From: an uncultured cyanobacterium
Lineage (GTDB): Bacteria; Cyanobacteriota; Cyanobacteriia; CAKZMO01
NCBI GenBank assembly: GCA_963719515.1
Contig: CAVRCJ010000011.1
Location: 435,035 to 499,034 of the forward strand
Direction: 5' to 3'
Length of the DNA stretch: 64,000 nt
The notes beneath the pieces are model-generated. The model ran no database searches and was not told the DNA's origin. It worked only from the letters and a program-made list of their open reading frames with translations. Position numbers and translations under genes: made by a program. How positions within the stretch are numbered: position 1 is the first letter of the stretch; each line of letters opens with the position of its first letter. This document shows positions 5,557 through 19,343 of the stretch, one piece after another.

Positions 5557-5835
5557 TTACTGCAGGCCGCGCAGGCGCATCAGGTAGGCCAAGACCTGCC
5601 CTTCTCGGCGGCTGAGCCGCACACCGTCGGGGCCGATGGGCACGGGGCCGGTCCACAGGCTTTGCTCTACGAGGTAGCGGTTAATGTGCATCAGGTGAAT
5701 GGTTTCCCGGATGCCTTCTGGGGTGCCAATGAGGATGTGACGCACCACTTCGCCGTCGGGCTGATGCGGGGGATCGCTCAGGCGAAGCTGTGCCGCCTCA
5801 GGGCTGAGGGGCTGCTCGGGGATTAGAAATGTCAT
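5557..5835 (-). CDS. Small cyanobacterial protein of unknown function (RHILIG.P.G...W family), copy 1
   Basis: VRHILIGTPEGIRETIHLMH...LWTGPVPIG...GQVLAYL; homologous to ORFs at 18964 and 55341; RBS AAAGGAA. Confidence 0.75.
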   Translation of the reverse strand: MTFLIPEQPLSPEAAQLRLSDPPHQPDGEVVRHILIGTPEGIRETIHLMHINRYLVEQSLWTGPVPIGPDGVRLSRREGQVLAYLMRLRGLQ

Positions 5836-6085
5836 GGGTTGGGTTCCTTTCTGGTGTAGATGGGTAGGAAACCCAAGTTTGGCCACCCCTCACAAGGTTG
5901 AACCAGTTCGGAGTGGCCGTGGGAAAATAACCACAGCTTTCGAACAGGTCTGCTCTGTTTCGGAGGTCAGGCGGCGGCTGTCAATGCCACTGGCAGTCGC
6001 TGCCGTTATGACCAAAGCTTGGGAGTCGAACTGCGGGATGCAGCTCTCAAGACGAAATTCTAGGGCATTTGGGGATGGGTGGCAA
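5836..6085 (-). promoter_or_regulatory. Sigma70-type promoter (TTGCCA-N17-TAGAAT) followed by a ~215-nt structured leader ending in an RBS-occluding hairpin
   Basis: -35 at 6085-6080, -10 at 6062-6057; stems GGCCACTCC/GGGGTGGCC and GGGTTTCCT/AGGAACCC. Confidence 0.6.
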
Positions 6086-6168
6086 GAGCCAGTGCTGCGA
6101 TCGCAAAGGCTCAATCGCCCCAGCGGCTAAAATAGACCCAACCCGTCTCAAGCGATCGCCGTGACGCC

Positions 6169-6831
6169 ATGATCATTTCTACCCAGGTCAGCGAGCTAGA
6201 GCTAGACACCACTAGCGGGCAGCTCACCCAAACCGTCACCCTTGCGGGCATTAGCTGGCCGACCTACCAGGCTATGCTCACCGACATGGGAGAGCACCGC
6301 GCTACCCGCATCGCCTACAACCAGGGAACGCTGACCCTCAAAATGCCATCCAAGCTCCATGAGATTATCAATCGCCTGCTGGCGCGCATTGTTAAAACCT
6401 TGACTGAGGAGCTGGGCTTAGAGGTGGTGGATGTGGGGTCTATGACGCTGGAGCGCGAAGATTTGCGCAAAGGTGCGGAGCCCGACACTGGGTTCTATAT
6501 CCAAAATGCGTCTCAGTTGGACGGGCTCGACCCGCAGATCCCGGCGGGGCTGCCACCGGATCTGGTGATTGAGGTGGATATTACGAGCCCGTCTACTCAG
6601 CGCATGGCGATTTATGAGGCGTTGGGGGTGCCGGAGGTTTGGCGCTACACCAAGCGGCAAGGGCTGGTGTTCTATCGGCTGGATGGCAATGCGTACGTGG
6701 AGGCTGAGGTAAGCGTGGCGTTTGGGCAGGTTTCTTCGGTGCAGCTGAATGCGTTCTTGGCGGCGCGGCAGCACAAAGGGGAGAATCAGGTGATTCGTGC
6801 GGTGCGCGATTGGGTTCGCGGGTTGGAGTAG
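6169..6831 (+). CDS. Uma2 family (DUF820) endonuclease-fold protein
   Basis: ISWPTY...EPDTGFY...PPDLVIEVDITS...YEALGVPEVWR. Confidence 0.92.
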   Translation: MIISTQVSELELDTTSGQLTQTVTLAGISWPTYQAMLTDMGEHRATRIAYNQGTLTLKMPSKLHEIINRLLARIVKTLTEELGLEVVDVGSMTLEREDLRKGAEPDTGFYIQNASQLDGLDPQIPAGLPPDLVIEVDITSPSTQRMAIYEALGVPEVWRYTKRQGLVFYRLDGNAYVEAEVSVAFGQVSSVQLNAFLAARQHKGENQVIRAVRDWVRGLE

Positions 6832-6946: not shown

Positions 6947-7210
6947 ATGACTCAAGTGACTATCGAGCTGCCAGACCAGGTGGCGAGAGACTTAGAAGCT
7001 TATCTCCAGGCTAATTCGCAGGAGAGCTTGGCTGAGCTAATCCATGAGGTTCTGCAGGTTAAGCTACCGTCTACTCTGCCCTCTAAGGCGATGCAGGGAA
7101 ACGATTCTTCCTTGGTTGATTTCTTCCGTAACTCTCCGCTCCAAGCTGTGGCTGGGGAGATTGACCTGAACCGCGATGATCGCGCTGCTGACGAACGTAT
7201 TACTCTATGA
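6947..7210 (+). CDS. Putative type II antitoxin (VapB-like)
   Basis: VTIELPD N-terminus, SLVDFFRNSPL...LNRD C-terminus; ATGA overlap with the PIN toxin gene. Confidence 0.7.
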   Translation: MTQVTIELPDQVARDLEAYLQANSQESLAELIHEVLQVKLPSTLPSKAMQGNDSSLVDFFRNSPLQAVAGEIDLNRDDRAADERITL

Positions 7211-7629
7211 GGTATTTGCTCGATACCTGTATCATTTCGGAGCTTGTTGCAAAGCAGCCTAACCCCAAAGTCTTGAGCTGGGTTACAGACCAGCCTGACG
7301 AGAACTTGTACTTATCTGTCATTACGATTGGAGAGATTAAGAAGGGAGTTTGCAAGCTGCCAGATTCTAAACGTAAATCCGCGCTGTCTGCTTGGCTAAG
7401 GCAAGACCTCCTAGTTCGCTTTGCAGGCAGAGTTCAAGCCGTCGATATTGAAACTATGCTGTATTGGGGAGAGCTGCTAGGCCGTTTAGAGACCCAGGGT
7501 AGAGCACTGCCGCTTTTAGATTCTTTGATCGCGGCGATCGCGCTTCGAGGTTCTTTTCAGCTTGTAACACGTAATGAGAAGGACTTTGATAGAATAGGTG
7601 TCTCTATAGTGAATCCATTTGTAGGGTAG
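7207..7629 (+). CDS. vapC: VapC/PIN-domain toxin
   Basis: YLLDTCIISE...SVITIGEI...DSLIAAIA...LVTRNEKDF. Confidence 0.92.
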   Translation: MRYLLDTCIISELVAKQPNPKVLSWVTDQPDENLYLSVITIGEIKKGVCKLPDSKRKSALSAWLRQDLLVRFAGRVQAVDIETMLYWGELLGRLETQGRALPLLDSLIAAIALRGSFQLVTRNEKDFDRIGVSIVNPFVG

Positions 7630-7906
7630 TGGTGAGACTCCTGTAGCACTTGTAAGCGATCGCTCACACCTGTCAGTAAGCTCAAGACAAAGCATCTCAA
7701 AATGAGCCTACCTTGCCTCATAGGCTACTGGAGTAAATTCGGACTATTTTTCTTAACTGTCACACGGCTGAAATACTGATTCTGTCGTGGAACTGATGAG
7801 ACTGACCTATAGGTAGGCAATTGAACTCTAGTCACTGTTTAATCGACATTTTGGTAAGTATCTCAGTTATAGAGTGGTTGTAGCTCTGGGGCAATTACTC
7901 TGAGTG

Positions 7907-7993
7907 ATTTAACGATCCCAATCAGCGGCAGCAGGCAACCTCGAACTCCACTGATGTTAAGTTCGACCGTCCGCTGCATTGGGGTTGTTATGC
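7907..7993 (-). other. attC-like integron recombination site (87 bp)
   Basis: Minus strand GCATAAC-AACCCCAAT-G-CAGCGG...CCGCTG-ATTGGGATC-GTTAAAT: AAC/GTT cores, imperfect palindrome with one extrahelical base in the left arm. Confidence 0.8.
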
Positions 7994-8204
7994 CGCAATG
8001 TTGAAGATAAATAAAAGAATAGCGTAACCTGTTGCATAATTAGTAAGTATGTACTAAAGTACGATTTATACACTCTGTGCAGTGTTTCAGAGGTGCAGCA
8101 GATAAACCTAAGAACTTTCCCAACAGAGTCAATCTTTCCTGATCTTTAAGGACATCGAGAGAAGATCTAAGTGATTATATTTCAGATCACTTAGGTATTT
8201 TCCC

Positions 8205-8672
8205 ATGCCGCATGACTTTAGAGAGTTTCCCAATCCCCTACGTAATCACTTGAGGGAGCTATTTGAAACCATGAGCCAACTACAAGAAGAAATTGAAAAT
8301 CTCAGTGATCGTCTTTCCGATTCAAGGCAAGCCTTTAAACAGAGTATTGAGGATTTCTTTCAACAACCAAACCAGAACCCATTCCCTACGGAAGGAACTA
8401 TTGACTCTGATGTCGAGCAATACACGAGGCTCGTGTCTTATTGTCTAGAGGCAGGGGATACAGAAATTTTGGATAGATGGGGAATTCAAAACATCCTTAC
8501 CAATCCGACCATTCTAGCCTCTAGTAACTACGAGTTATATTACTTAGCTTTCAATAATGCACGAGAAACATCTAAAACGCCTCTAGAAGAAGAATGCTGG
8601 ATTAAAGTAATTGAGATGTTTCAAATCTTGCAAAATCCAGGAGGTACACTTATCACTGTAGGAAACAGGTGA
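8205..8672 (+). CDS. Cassette-borne protein with a phycobiliprotein/globin-like segment
   Basis: DVEQYTRLVSYCLEAGDTEILDRWGI resembles the RD..YLRL..YCLV.G.TGPLDEWGI segment of phycobiliprotein alpha subunits; low GC. Confidence 0.55.
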   Translation: MPHDFREFPNPLRNHLRELFETMSQLQEEIENLSDRLSDSRQAFKQSIEDFFQQPNQNPFPTEGTIDSDVEQYTRLVSYCLEAGDTEILDRWGIQNILTNPTILASSNYELYYLAFNNARETSKTPLEEECWIKVIEMFQILQNPGGTLITVGNR

Positions 8673-8696
8673 AAGAGGATTAGCACTTTTAAGAGA

Positions 8697-9218
8697 TTAT
8701 TTATCCTGAGAGCGCCGTGCAGCTTGCTGGGCACGAGCTGCACTAAGGTATTGGCTACTGAGCTGCTTCGCATTTCTTCGCATTTCTTCGCCTCTACTAA
8801 CGTCTATGATTTGCTCTAAGAGGCTTTTTATCTCTCTAATAGCTTCCACAGATAGTTCATGAGTTGCACTTAAATCATCAACATTTTCCCTTAAGGAATA
8901 AAGCTCACTATTCTCGGGAAGTGTTGATGCCAAAACTTTCAAACGCTCAAGAGCTTCACTTTTCTTGGTTTGAAACGAGGAATTTTGTCTCTTTATTTCA
9001 TATATTTTATCTTTAATATCATCAGCAACCTGCTTAAGTCGATTTCGCTTAGCTTCGACTTCTGATTCAAACTTCTTAATTCTGGCAAAGTCTTGAACTC
9101 TTTTTCTAAAGCCCTGTATGGCATTCCATATTTGATTACGAGCTAGAAGGCACCCAAATATAACAATAACTGCAATTAACGCAGGGAGCTTACTGAGATC
9201 CGAAAAATCACCTTTCAA
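8697..9218 (-). CDS. Cassette-borne membrane-anchored coiled-coil protein
   Basis: N-terminal hydrophobic helix (LIAVIVIFGCLLA) then a long charged helical region; start uncertain. Confidence 0.6.
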   Translation of the reverse strand: MKGDFSDLSKLPALIAVIVIFGCLLARNQIWNAIQGFRKRVQDFARIKKFESEVEAKRNRLKQVADDIKDKIYEIKRQNSSFQTKKSEALERLKVLASTLPENSELYSLRENVDDLSATHELSVEAIREIKSLLEQIIDVSRGEEMRRNAKQLSSQYLSAARAQQAARRSQDK

Positions 9219-9524
9219 GATATCTTGAACTAAGTCAAAAATTTTCTCAAATATTCAATCCATTAGAAACTCGCTCTTCTAAGGTAGTTGCACAAGCCGA
9301 ATTATAGTATGCGCTTTATAGATAGCGCGACTTTAGGGATCGTGAGCTATTAGCAGTAGAACATTGAATTAAGGCAAAAGCCAGCTTAAGCATATTTCAG
9401 ATTTGAGGGATTTTATACCATTATCCCAAAAATTAAGTAATTCTCAAGAATACTTAAACATGCATAGTTCAACAGCTTAAAAATTTGCTACAAGGGCTAC
9501 TGTGTCCCAACCAAAAATTCAGCA

Positions 9525-9612
9525 GCATAACGTTCCGATTGAGCGGCATCAGGTCTGCTGTAACATTAGACAAAAAGGTTCCCGGCTGTCCGCTCCAATC
9601 GGATTGTTAGAC
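9525..9612 (-). other. attC-like integron recombination site (88 bp)
   Basis: Minus strand GTCTAAC-AATCCGATT-G-GAGCGG...CCGCTC-AATCGGAAC-GTTATGC; same architecture as 7907-7993. Confidence 0.8.
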
Positions 9613-9877
9613 ATCGAGATATTAACTGAATGTAGAACACACATCTATGGCTTTCTTCTAAAAAACCAGTTTAGAAAGGCAATAATAGCGACCGCTATCA
9701 TGGTTATTATTTGAAAAGGATTGAATATCTTAGTTATGCTTTGCATCGTACTCGTTTTAGTTAACTAGATAGGTTATTTTAGAAACGGTTTTGAATCAGT
9801 GTCTTTTGAATCTGGGGAAGATAAATACAAAGCCTTAAAACATCGGTTTTACTAGACTTTCAACATTCAGGCGTCCC

Positions 9878-10351
9878 TCAGCGATCTCGGAAACGCTGTA
9901 AAGTCATTTGCAGGCTTTTATAGATATTTTTCCAGTCTTGAGCCAGAAAATCTTCTAATCCCTGTAGGTCCATTTTCTTGAACGTCAACTCACCTCGACT
10001 ATTCTGAGTCACGCGAAAATTCGCGTTGTACAATCTCAGCATCTCCTCGGGTTGCATTGTTTCTACTTTCTTTTCGTAGTTCGAGTACAGAAAAGTTGCG
10101 GATAATCCCCCTACTGCGGCAGCTCCTGCCCACCCAATAGGACCAAGGGCAGCTACACCAAAAGCTCCAAAAACCGCAACCTTTTCCGCAATTTTTTCCC
10201 TAGATATTCTCAAAAGTCGGTAATAGATCTTCACAGCATACGAGTACACCTCACCTTTGACTATGATTTCATCCCCAACCGCAAAAGAATCGATCCTTGC
10301 CAGAACGTCTGTCCAGTCATCATGAGACTGAACGATAGCCACTTTACCCAT
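9878..10351 (-). CDS. Cassette-borne hypothetical protein with a Gly/Ala-rich hydrophobic hairpin
   Basis: 157-aa ORF with RBS GAGG; segment VAVFGAFGVAALGPIGWAGAAAVGG; oriented with the attC array. Confidence 0.7.
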   Translation of the reverse strand: MGKVAIVQSHDDWTDVLARIDSFAVGDEIIVKGEVYSYAVKIYYRLLRISREKIAEKVAVFGAFGVAALGPIGWAGAAAVGGLSATFLYSNYEKKVETMQPEEMLRLYNANFRVTQNSRGELTFKKMDLQGLEDFLAQDWKNIYKSLQMTLQRFRDR

Positions 10352-10427
10352 ACAACCTCATTAACTCTCTCAATACAAAACACAAGATAAAAAAACTTAC
10401 TTGCTATTCTAGCCTGGGACTAAAACT

Positions 10428-10660
10428 GTCTAACTATATATTCAACGTCAGATCTGCTCGATAACACCCCATTCCCCGGATCTTATCAGGCAGATCTGAC
10501 GGATAACACCCTATTTCTCAGGCTTATCTACCACATCTGACGTCTAACTCCAGAAATCCGGGGTGTTATCTGTCACTTTTGCTTGATGATCCTAGCCTCT
10601 GGAATATTATTTGTCACTTCTGACGGATAACAACACACATAGCCGTGTTATCCGGCGATC
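10428..10660 (-). repeat. attI-like site (GTTAGAC core at 10434-10428) preceded by ~42-bp direct and inverted repeats with ATCTGAC/GATAACAC motifs
   Basis: The core matches the R'' of the attC at 9612; GATAACA at about 10460, 10502 and 10626, and its reverse complement at about 10563 and 10645. Confidence 0.55.
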
Positions 10661-10859
10661 GCCATGTGCCATTGACCATGAAAAGCAGTGCAGCGTCGCT
10701 GCCGGGCGCAGCAGCTAATCAGGCTACACAGCAAAGTTTAAGATATCCTGACGAAATCTCTCCTCGCCGACAAGTCCATTCGTTTGCTACGCCGCTTTCC
10801 CAGAACTGTAAATCGCAAGCACCCAAGTACTTCATACCGCTATACCGCGATCGCCCCAT

Positions 10860-11060
10860 GCACTTAAGCAAAACCAACAAACGCTTACTGAGATCAAGCA
10901 AACGCTTAAGCAAAACCGACTAACCACAAAGCGAAACCTCAAAACACTTAAGCCGTAAGCCATATCGCTTATTGAGCTATAAGCAACGCTTAAGCGTTTC
11001 TCGCTAACGTATAAACGTTGGTCGATAACGCTCAAGCAAAACCAACAAACGCTTATTGGT
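10860..11060. repeat. Degenerate ~21-bp periodic repeat tract (CTTAAGCAAAACC...)
   Basis: AAGCAAAACCAACAAACGCTTA occurs twice; CTTAAGC/CTCAAGC recurs. Confidence 0.65.
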
Positions 11061-11459
11061 TACCCCAAACCGAGCCCACGCCAAAGGCTCAACCCCACTC
11101 GATACAATGGCAGCACAACAGCCCAGACTCAGCGCAGCCTAGATACGCCTCAGCGATCGCCCCCCATAGCTGACAAACATGGGGTGCATATGCACCGGCT
11201 ACAGCGTGAGAATGCTGGTGTTGGATTTCCCCATCTAGGCAAAGGCGATCGCTTTCGATCGTCCGTGAGCTGTATCGACGCTGTCCCCTTGTAGGCTGCG
11301 GCGAAGCGGTACAGGTGTTCCCTGATCAAACAAGATTTTCATTAACCTGCTATGCGCTCTAACCTAGTGAGTTCATAGTCTAGAAGGGACTCCACCTGAC
11401 TACGTGCTACTCCTGGAAACCAGTCCAAAAATTGATCGATGGAAGCGCTATCTTTAAGA

Positions 11460-11602
11460 TTTTCAAGTTATCTTCGCGATGTCGGGTCAGCAGCAGCAGG
11501 CAGAGCAGATTGGCCGCCAGCGCCAACAACGCCCATAAGCTCTGCGGTGGGAGCTGCCCCGGTCATAAATTGATAGATAGCCCGAGCGAAGACGGCGATC
11601 GC
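11460..11602 (-). pseudogene. Fragment of a cation-efflux (CDF-like) transporter gene
   Basis: Hand translation AIAVFARAIYQFMTGAAPTAELMG / LLALAANLLCLLLLTRHREDNL with one frameshift; starts at a HIP1 site. Confidence 0.5.
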
Positions 11603-18963: not shown

Positions 18964-19343
18964 ATGGTATCTCAATATAATTCGCTGCCCTTGGCTCAAG
19001 AGGCAGCAAAGATCGCTATAGCCCAGCAGCTCGCGGCAGACCAGGCCGCGCGGCTTGCTTCTCCCACCGAAGCAGAGCCCCACATCCCTGCGCTAATCGA
19101 GCCTGCCCCCGCGCCAGGGTGTGTTGGTCCCTTCAGGACCAGTCGCAGACTCACACCTGCGTCACATCATTATCGGCTCCCCCGACGGCGTGCGCCACGC
19201 CATTGAGCGGCTACATGTGCTGCAGTACGTCGAGGGGCGGCTGCTGGACGCCGCTGATTGCTATCGGTGATAAAGGCATCCATATCACTCCTGCCCACGG
19301 GCAGGTGCTGAGCTACCTGGTGCAGCAGCGGCCTCTGCGTTAG
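18964..19343 (+). pseudogene. Small protein family copy 2, with two frameshifts (about 19153 and 19235)
   Basis: Reassembled HLRHIIIGSPDGVRHAIERLHVLQYVE...WTPLIAIGDKGIHITPAHGQVLSYLVQQR aligns with 5557..5835. Confidence 0.7.

Follow-up and report, generated by a model that had tools for sequence, protein, structure and literature searches.

A probable integron remnant with a retained attI platform and two interlocking gene cassettes in an uncultured cyanobacterium

Cassettes and attC sites of the array

A small gene-cassette array lies on the minus strand of a stretch of 64,000 nucleotides, here called the window, from contig CAVRCJ010000011.1 (positions 435,035 to 499,034) of an uncultured cyanobacterium (assembly GCA_963719515.1). 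The array consists of an attI platform and two cassettes, A and B, each closed by an attC site, and has no integrase gene (intI) beside it (Table 1). The locus is almost certainly the remnant of a cyanobacterial integron from which intI has been lost. The genome under study is labelled G000; C with a number denotes a contig, L with a number a fetched locus, and X1 a metagenome run.

Table 1. Features of the cassette array and its surroundings (window positions)
Feature	Position	Strand	Basis
attI platform, ~230 bp, ten boxes then simple site	10435..10662	-	box map and homology to intI-adjacent sites
Core GTTAGAC (G/TT), attI/cassette A crossover	10434-10428	-	exact sequence match
Cassette A, 903 bp	9531..10433	-	bounded by GTTAGAC and attC1
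Cassette A open reading frame (ORF), 157 aa, ORFan; glycine/alanine-rich hydrophobic stretch	9878..10351	-	translation
attC1 (88 nt): R'' GTCTAAC, L'' GATTGGAG, L' GCTCAAT, R' GTTATGC	9525..9612	-	
Core GTCTAAC	9612-9606	-	exact; R'' of attC1
Core GTTATGC	9531-9525	-	exact; R' of attC1, opens cassette B
Cassette B, 1618 bp, two convergent genes	7913..9530	-	
Cassette B gene 1, predicted membrane helix and coiled coil	8697..9263	-	translation; weak coiled-coil profile matches
Cassette B gene 2, 155 aa, phycobiliprotein-like, antisense to array	8205..8672	+	PF00502
attC2 (87 nt): R'' GCATAAC, L'' CAATGCAG, L' GCTGATT, R' GTTAAAT	7907..7993	-	
Core GCATAAC	7993-7987	-	exact; R'' of attC2
Core GTTAAAT	7913-7907	-	exact; R' of attC2
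Tail after last core, AT-rich, 250 bp, without attC or ORF	7664..7912	-	
Expected intI position, no recognisable intI	10663..10845	+	intI profile search
Remnant of efflux-type gene, synteny marker outside integron	11444..11602	-	only tblastn match in G000 to the intact gene of L116

An earlier note on this DNA, made from the letters alone, had described an integron cassette array without local integrase, and the attC models, the interlock and the missing intI bear this out. Its core coordinates were all exact on the minus strand, and in both cassettes R'' is, as it had stated, the exact complement of the R' that opens the same cassette. Both attC sites fold best on the bottom strand, with extrahelical bases present, at -15.9 kcal/mol for attC1 and -19.4 kcal/mol for attC2. 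The hairpin z values are -3.1 and -4.5, respectively, with 3/200 and 0/200 dinucleotide shuffles equally good. A covariance model (R1) built from seven seeds, two of them attC1 and attC2, gathered 55 attC from 49 loci in other genomes, and a second model (R2) was trained on these 55. R2 scores attC1 at 65.8 bits and attC2 at 69.1 bits (genome-wide E 2e-11 and 4e-12), and it is only partly independent of the two sites because R1, seeded with both, picked its training set. Pairing in the alignment of the 55 related attC, which was fitted to the model whose pairing was scored, reaches 83.4% of cells, compared with 66.6% after shuffling and 26-42% in slid controls. Exact interlock was found in 26 of 49 cassette intervals of related arrays (shuffled mean 4.0, maximum 12, 5000 shuffles), a count lowered by any missed attC. 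An Rfam scan of the locus gave no match. Eleven attC are recognised by R2 in G000, nine behind a platform and two solitary ones without platform at C4:91761-91846 and C13:43863-43949; the former comes after a 393-aa gene labelled from its sequence as pentapeptide-repeat-like.

The G+C content is 0.41 in cassette A and 0.39 in cassette B, against about 0.57 in the genome. The HIP1 site GCGATCGC flanks the array and is absent from 7663 to 10655. Its density of 12-18 per 10 kb, together with the mostly cyanobacterial titles of the platform matches, points to a cyanobacterial host. Both the AT richness and the HIP1 gap had been pointed out before. The gap is supporting evidence only, because the genome, with 7716 HIP1 gaps in all, has 75 of such length. 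The tail at 7664-7912 gave no attC model match and no ORF, and matches G001:C482 at 80%, where no attC was found; it may be what is left of a third cassette, cut short, or else the right half that the site had originally. Immediately downstream of the array are a VapBC-type pair with PIN domain (6947-7629) and a Uma2 gene (6169-6831).

The ORF of cassette A matched nothing in Pfam, PADLOC or NCBIfam. A search of 5.8 billion proteins returned itself alone, with all Atlas leads under 0.9, and its cassette DNA has no homologue among the fetched loci. Cassette B carries two genes. Homologues found of gene 1 are 188 aa long in five of five cases, and the only defence annotation of the window cassettes consists of weak coiled-coil PADLOC matches. 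Gene 2 scores 29.9 bits with PF00502 (cut-off 22.2), is far under the CpeA and ApcA equivalog cut-offs, and aligns with phycoerythrin alpha at E 3e-5, with Ile at the bilin-binding Cys position of the latter in the profile alignment. Its family is small, with 36 representatives at E<=0.001. In the structure model (predicted local distance difference test, pLDDT, 90.7), residues 62-140 superimpose on allophycocyanin and phycoerythrin with Z 6.8-6.9 and root-mean-square deviation 2.6-2.8 over 77-78 aligned residues, values tied by unrelated helical proteins, and a Foldseek search with the model gave no match at E<=0.001. The product shares with phycobiliprotein alpha subunits (PF00502; 7f86_A, 1b8d_A; allophycocyanin 8or7_A) the D-x-x-x-Y-x-R-L-V-x-Y-C-L-x-x-G region and, as modelled, the C-terminal helical arrangement. 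It differs from them in the Ile that replaces the bilin Cys, in a long N-terminal helix, in a whole-protein TM-score of <=0.38, and in riding on a cassette together with a membrane/coiled-coil gene. The bilin cysteine is absent, the fold match is partial, and the product is unlikely to be a light harvester.

Copies of cassette B were found in other arrays. In G218, which belongs to a different family, it is 88% identical over window positions 9531 to 7975 and begins precisely with GTTATGC, which follows a different attI-type repeat block; its attC is truncated. The 10.9 kb retrieved around this copy yielded no intI; an unbroken intI of G218 lies on another contig. In run X1, positions 8822-7910 are matched by a 2390-nt contig with 19 differences (98% identity), which then continues into a different cassette opened by GTTAGGC. 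Both genes recur in G289, again convergent, and no attC was found there. Of 400 further genomes of the class, two were found to have a cassette B gene. Judged by these sequence comparisons, cassette B is mobile between arrays. Neither circular cassettes nor excision joints were seen in the assembled contigs of four runs, a data type unable to show absence, and contigs from RNA libraries are not evidence of transcription.

The attI platform and the missing integrase

The platform carries GATAAC-like and GTTATC-like boxes in alternation at steps of ~21 bp, at -218, -197, -177, -157, -136, -114, -94, -73, -53 and -31 from the crossover. Next to them is a simple site of the form GTTGAAT - 5 nt - G/TT, the slash marking the crossover. 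The phased boxes keep fixed positions in 54 platforms and are predicted to be bound, as accessory sites, by a protein, in the simplest case IntI. G000 has five platforms, of which four are homologues of the window one at C14, C1 (twice) and C18, with 73-79% identity. Three of these paralogues adjoin intI 5' stubs head-to-head. At C18:28932-31843 (L001, L045), ~44 N-terminal and 20 C-terminal intI codons are fused, and attI and a cassette with type II restriction-modification genes come next. The two further platforms with intI stubs are at C1:270827-277803 and C1:253737-256178, and the C1 arrays contain PDC-S51, PDC-S57, a weak match to a LeoA-like GTPase, and a gene-less first cassette of ~60 bp that is seen also in L070.

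A GTDB search with the last 33 bases of the platform gave 50 distinct sites after the overlapping L108 was removed, most of them in records with cyanobacterial titles. The neighbouring intI is full-length and open at 7 of these sites, full-length and broken at 5, and a fragment at 10; there is no trace at 25, and the contig is too short at 3. At the 12 loci with full-length intI beside the same core, 11 of the 12 intI matches start 234-248 nt from the G of GTT. This fixed distance identifies the platform as the intI-attI intergenic block, and by such sequence evidence 10435-10662 is a retained attI platform.

The earlier note had called the locus either a satellite array or a CALIN, the term for clustered attC sites with no integron integrase (Cury et al. 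2016, PMC4889954). The formal definition does cover two attC 1.6 kb apart with no nearby intI. The array is, however, not headless, as its attI platform had gone unrecognised. If it were headless, a distant integron would have inserted the cassettes at a secondary non-attI site, a route listed in PMC4889954, and the upstream repeats would be unrelated. The upstream 230 bp are instead homologous over their full length to the intI-proximal platform, which largely refutes this explanation and leaves it scarcely any credit.

Among the 15 matches listed for public metagenome contigs that reach the core, all end the match at 10429-10432 (13 diverge and 2 are contig ends); these contigs represent other platforms, because they are only 80-90% alike. 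The four metagenome runs behind this comparison may not be independent. A genus-specific attI pattern had no match in JGI metagenomes and a broader one had four. Another attI subtype of cyanobacteria, whose phased repeats are similar (GTTAGGCGGA/CTGCCTA-type), occurs at L113 (G218:C53), L003, L004, L008 and L009. The search pattern misses this subtype, so the platform counts cover one attI subtype only. Two attI cores in inverted orientation stand face to face in G005 (L124:1577-1583 and L131:1572-1583). The cultured Nodosilinea nodulosa PCC 7104 (L103) has an orphan attI with two exactly interlocking cassettes and no intI over cut-off. In the window, another tract with ~21-bp period (CAAAACCAACAAACGCT-type) lies between HIP1 sites at 10860-11060, with one partial copy at C6:484255-484311.

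Profile searches found no tyrosine recombinase in the 64-kb window, in agreement with the earlier note. TIGR02249 detected a single remnant in G000, and a DNA profile of ten intI genes (nhmmer) five short remnant matches on C1 and C18, none of them in the window. The family cut-off for intI was exceeded in 23 of 61 genomes searched (G000 included), so that integrons in cyanobacteria are commoner than the note had implied. The sole PF00589 match in G000 is a 382-aa protein at C10:431334-432482. That this resident recombinase now serves the orphan platforms, five of which persist, is very improbable, since it has no match to the integron integrase model and the partner of the platform in relatives is a standard IntI. 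Searches for a mobile origin of cyanobacterial IntI or attI were negative: there was no plasmid match and no attI pattern in viral contigs, and all phage matches were <60% identical, none from a listed cyanobacterial host. An IntI acting in trans would therefore be of chromosomal origin.

Where intI would be expected, the first ~50 nt of 10663-10845 are common to the C14 platform (window vs C14 and L116 vs C14, each p~0.002). For a decayed intI in this interval, suggested by an HSFAT-like peptide in the ORF 10645-10923, there is no profile match, and pairwise likeness is weak. Deletion of intI via the HIP1 site at 10655 was discarded; the stretch homologous to C14 extends across this site (CAATTG in C14 and L116), so 10655 is not a junction. 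A family of small ORFs was considered as a general accessory of platforms and dropped (3/45 GTDB platforms vs 1/41 control stretches; 5/20 intI loci); no general link is shown because the profile is biased to G000. The family has 83 domain rows in G000 and no Pfam match, stands beside 4/5 of the G000 platforms, and has members at 5557-5886 (minus strand) and 18964-19343 (plus strand) of the window.

Cassette exchange at platforms without intI

On metagenome contig L116, a platform without intI lies 62 nt from an intact gene of efflux type, probably a CDF-type cation-efflux gene, whose single match in G000 is the window remnant at 11444-11602. Past the array of L116 follows the best match to window positions 6009-6195 (80% over 187 nt). 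The platforms of the window, C14 and L116 form one clade (support 0.89) with no intI trace in any of them. The L116 platform thus appears probably orthologous to that of the window. Its cassettes are wholly different from those of the window, and the first of them again interlocks exactly. Within the genus, no conserved locus was found in the regions of G001-G003 or G007. Near the remnant of the efflux-type gene, the window contains broken toxin-antitoxin-like fragments at 11145-11460, presumably DUF433/DUF5615-like, and a HIP1-bounded segment of ~100 bp (11153-11252) that is matched in many cyanobacterial genomes.

A second pair, L082 and L084, is 91% identical over 2.3 kb; both are without intI and diverge right after GTTAGGC, and the genome of L084 has an unbroken intI elsewhere. 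Unbroken full-length intI elsewhere in the genome was found in 6 of 21 orphan-attI genomes; each genome entered this count with a single orphan locus, so that 21 of 25 loci are covered. Cassette B differs by 2% from its X1 copy, whereas the intI-less platforms differ by 22-33%. These comparisons favour, somewhat above even chance, the reading that cassette swapping at the dock went on after the local intI was lost, with IntI from elsewhere in the genome.

IntI is known to recombine the bottom strand of attC with attI, the junction being resolved by replication (PMC8352920). Here, IntI supplied in trans from another platform would have bound the phased boxes and cut both the folded bottom-strand attC of a circular cassette and the double-stranded attI at G/TT. 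Replication would then have resolved the attC x attI junction. A cassette inserted in this way opens with a core complementary to its own R''. Cassette B would have entered before cassette A, and a Pc promoter in the platform may drive cassette A.

Several observations weigh against continued exchange. The assembly of G000 is 100% complete in 21 contigs, and the genome-wide search that the note had proposed, made with protein and DNA profiles, found intI remnants and no intact gene. No intI over cut-off was present in four same-genus genomes, all fragmented assemblies, and 15 of the 21 orphan-attI genomes are without an unbroken copy. Of 8 comparisons that are not independent of one another, 5 show a weak likeness between intI 5' ends and the 60 nt beyond the platform (p 0.006-0.03 without correction). 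The likeness of the window and L116 junctions is not significant directly (p 0.16-0.25) and is linked only via C14, the platform core of which is eroded, a sign of decay. No platform was seen beside the CDF gene of G001 and G002 in the 1-1.3 kb covered; this neighbourhood is plastic, so the orthology of L116 is probable and not certain. The orphan pair L080/L091, 98.5% identical, keeps the same first cassette. Gene 1 of cassette B shows decay, with a stop at codon 3 and an open frame only from TTG at 9218 (173 aa). A promoter scan of the platform gave two 9/12 sigma-70-like matches on the minus strand, with a total of 7 against 7.4 by chance. As intI decays frequently, parallel losses are possible.

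All cassettes may have entered while intI was adjacent, with intI later deleted lineage by lineage and no movement since. The absence of intact intI from the genome, the shared first cassette of L080/L091 and the stop codon in gene 1 would suit such a frozen array, as would the graded decay of intI (5 broken, 10 fragments and 25 without trace among 50) and the commonness of intI pseudogenes (PMC2426708). It would require repeated complete losses that left non-intI sequence in common, as between the window and C14 and between L116 and C14. It would also require a recent loss to suit the 98%-identical cassette B, yet there is no clear intI trace. A frozen array is on balance unlikely, though it deserves to be taken seriously.

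Wholesale replacement of the array by homologous recombination or natural transformation, anchored in platform homology and possibly assisted by HIP1, would draw on the five paralogous platforms and on the HIP1 sites on both sides of the array. HIP1 reportedly has an effect on transformation, which was counted in favour of this explanation. Such replacement would import the platform of the donor, whereas the window and L116 retain the same platform subtype, and the HIP1 site at 10655 is crossed by the C14 homology. It is accordingly held to be quite improbable.

Continued exchange served from elsewhere in the genome is the preferred reading, and it concerns the past. The earlier note had proposed a satellite array served in trans; this accords with the locus comparisons for its history and cannot hold for the present assembly, in which no intact intI was found. 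The array in this strain is likely to be dormant until an intact intI is regained. Tentatively, Leptolyngbya-like cyanobacteria may possess a distributed integron in which many enzyme-less attI docks with ~21-bp-phased integrase boxes, dispersed along the chromosome, would be reloaded in trans whenever an intact intI is present or regained. The cassette pool would include defence systems and a repurposed phycobiliprotein without chromophore.

Comparison with known integrons

For Cyanobacteria, both integrons and attC models have been reported (PMC4889954, PMC8352920, PMC2426708, PMC8618304), and so have intI decay and a proposed mobilisation in trans (bioRxiv 10.1101/2025.06.18.660453). No published description of this attI or of multiple orphan cyanobacterial docks was found in a search that covered the subscription literature thinly, and the supplements of PMC4889954 and PMC8352920 may list such loci. 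Within the same thin coverage, no paper was found that joins Leptolyngbya with integron attC, integron cassettes with phycobiliprotein, or an integrase-less attI with cassettes. The locus adds a probable orthologue with different cassettes and a cassette transfer across families.

About half of CALINs are in replicons without IntI (PMC4889954). Whether these are dead or still exchanging is unsettled largely because attI is known in few classes only, and a searchable cyanobacterial attI is now available. The ratio of intI-less docks to intact integrons is ~25 to 7 for sites that have this core. The pairs window/L116 and L082/L084, with differing cassettes at integrase-less docks, make the servicing of CALINs in trans testable with named IntI and attI. 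The system also offers native site-specific integration for cyanobacteria. If the array has been frozen, the locus is a case of ordinary integron decay.

The platform resembles attI1 of class 1 integrons in the G/TT crossover and in an L-like box that precedes the core by 5 nt, 5 nt being also the length of the attI1 spacer. It differs in having ten alternating predicted boxes at ~21-bp spacing over ~230 bp, where attI1 has its simple site S1/S2 and two direct repeats, the accessory IntI1 sites DR1 and DR2 (bioRxiv 10.1101/2022.02.06.479319). With sedentary chromosomal integrons and pseudo-integrons (PMC2426708; bioRxiv 10.1101/2025.06.18.660453) it has in common that intI is divergent from attI where relatives are intact, that intI pseudogenes are frequent, and that the arrays consist of small AT-rich cassettes, defence genes among them. 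Xanthomonas integrons keep intI at one ancestral locus, ilvD (bioRxiv 10.1101/2025.06.18.660453), whereas these cyanobacteria have several dispersed attI platforms per genome (five here), mostly without intI. Among the routes proposed to CALINs are the loss of intI and mobilisation by another integrase (PMC4889954). Like them, this locus has two attC and no intI nearby; it differs in its kept and identifiable attI, through which the array could in principle gain cassettes at its head and not only donate them. It is formally a CALIN and functionally a pseudo-integron with retained attI.

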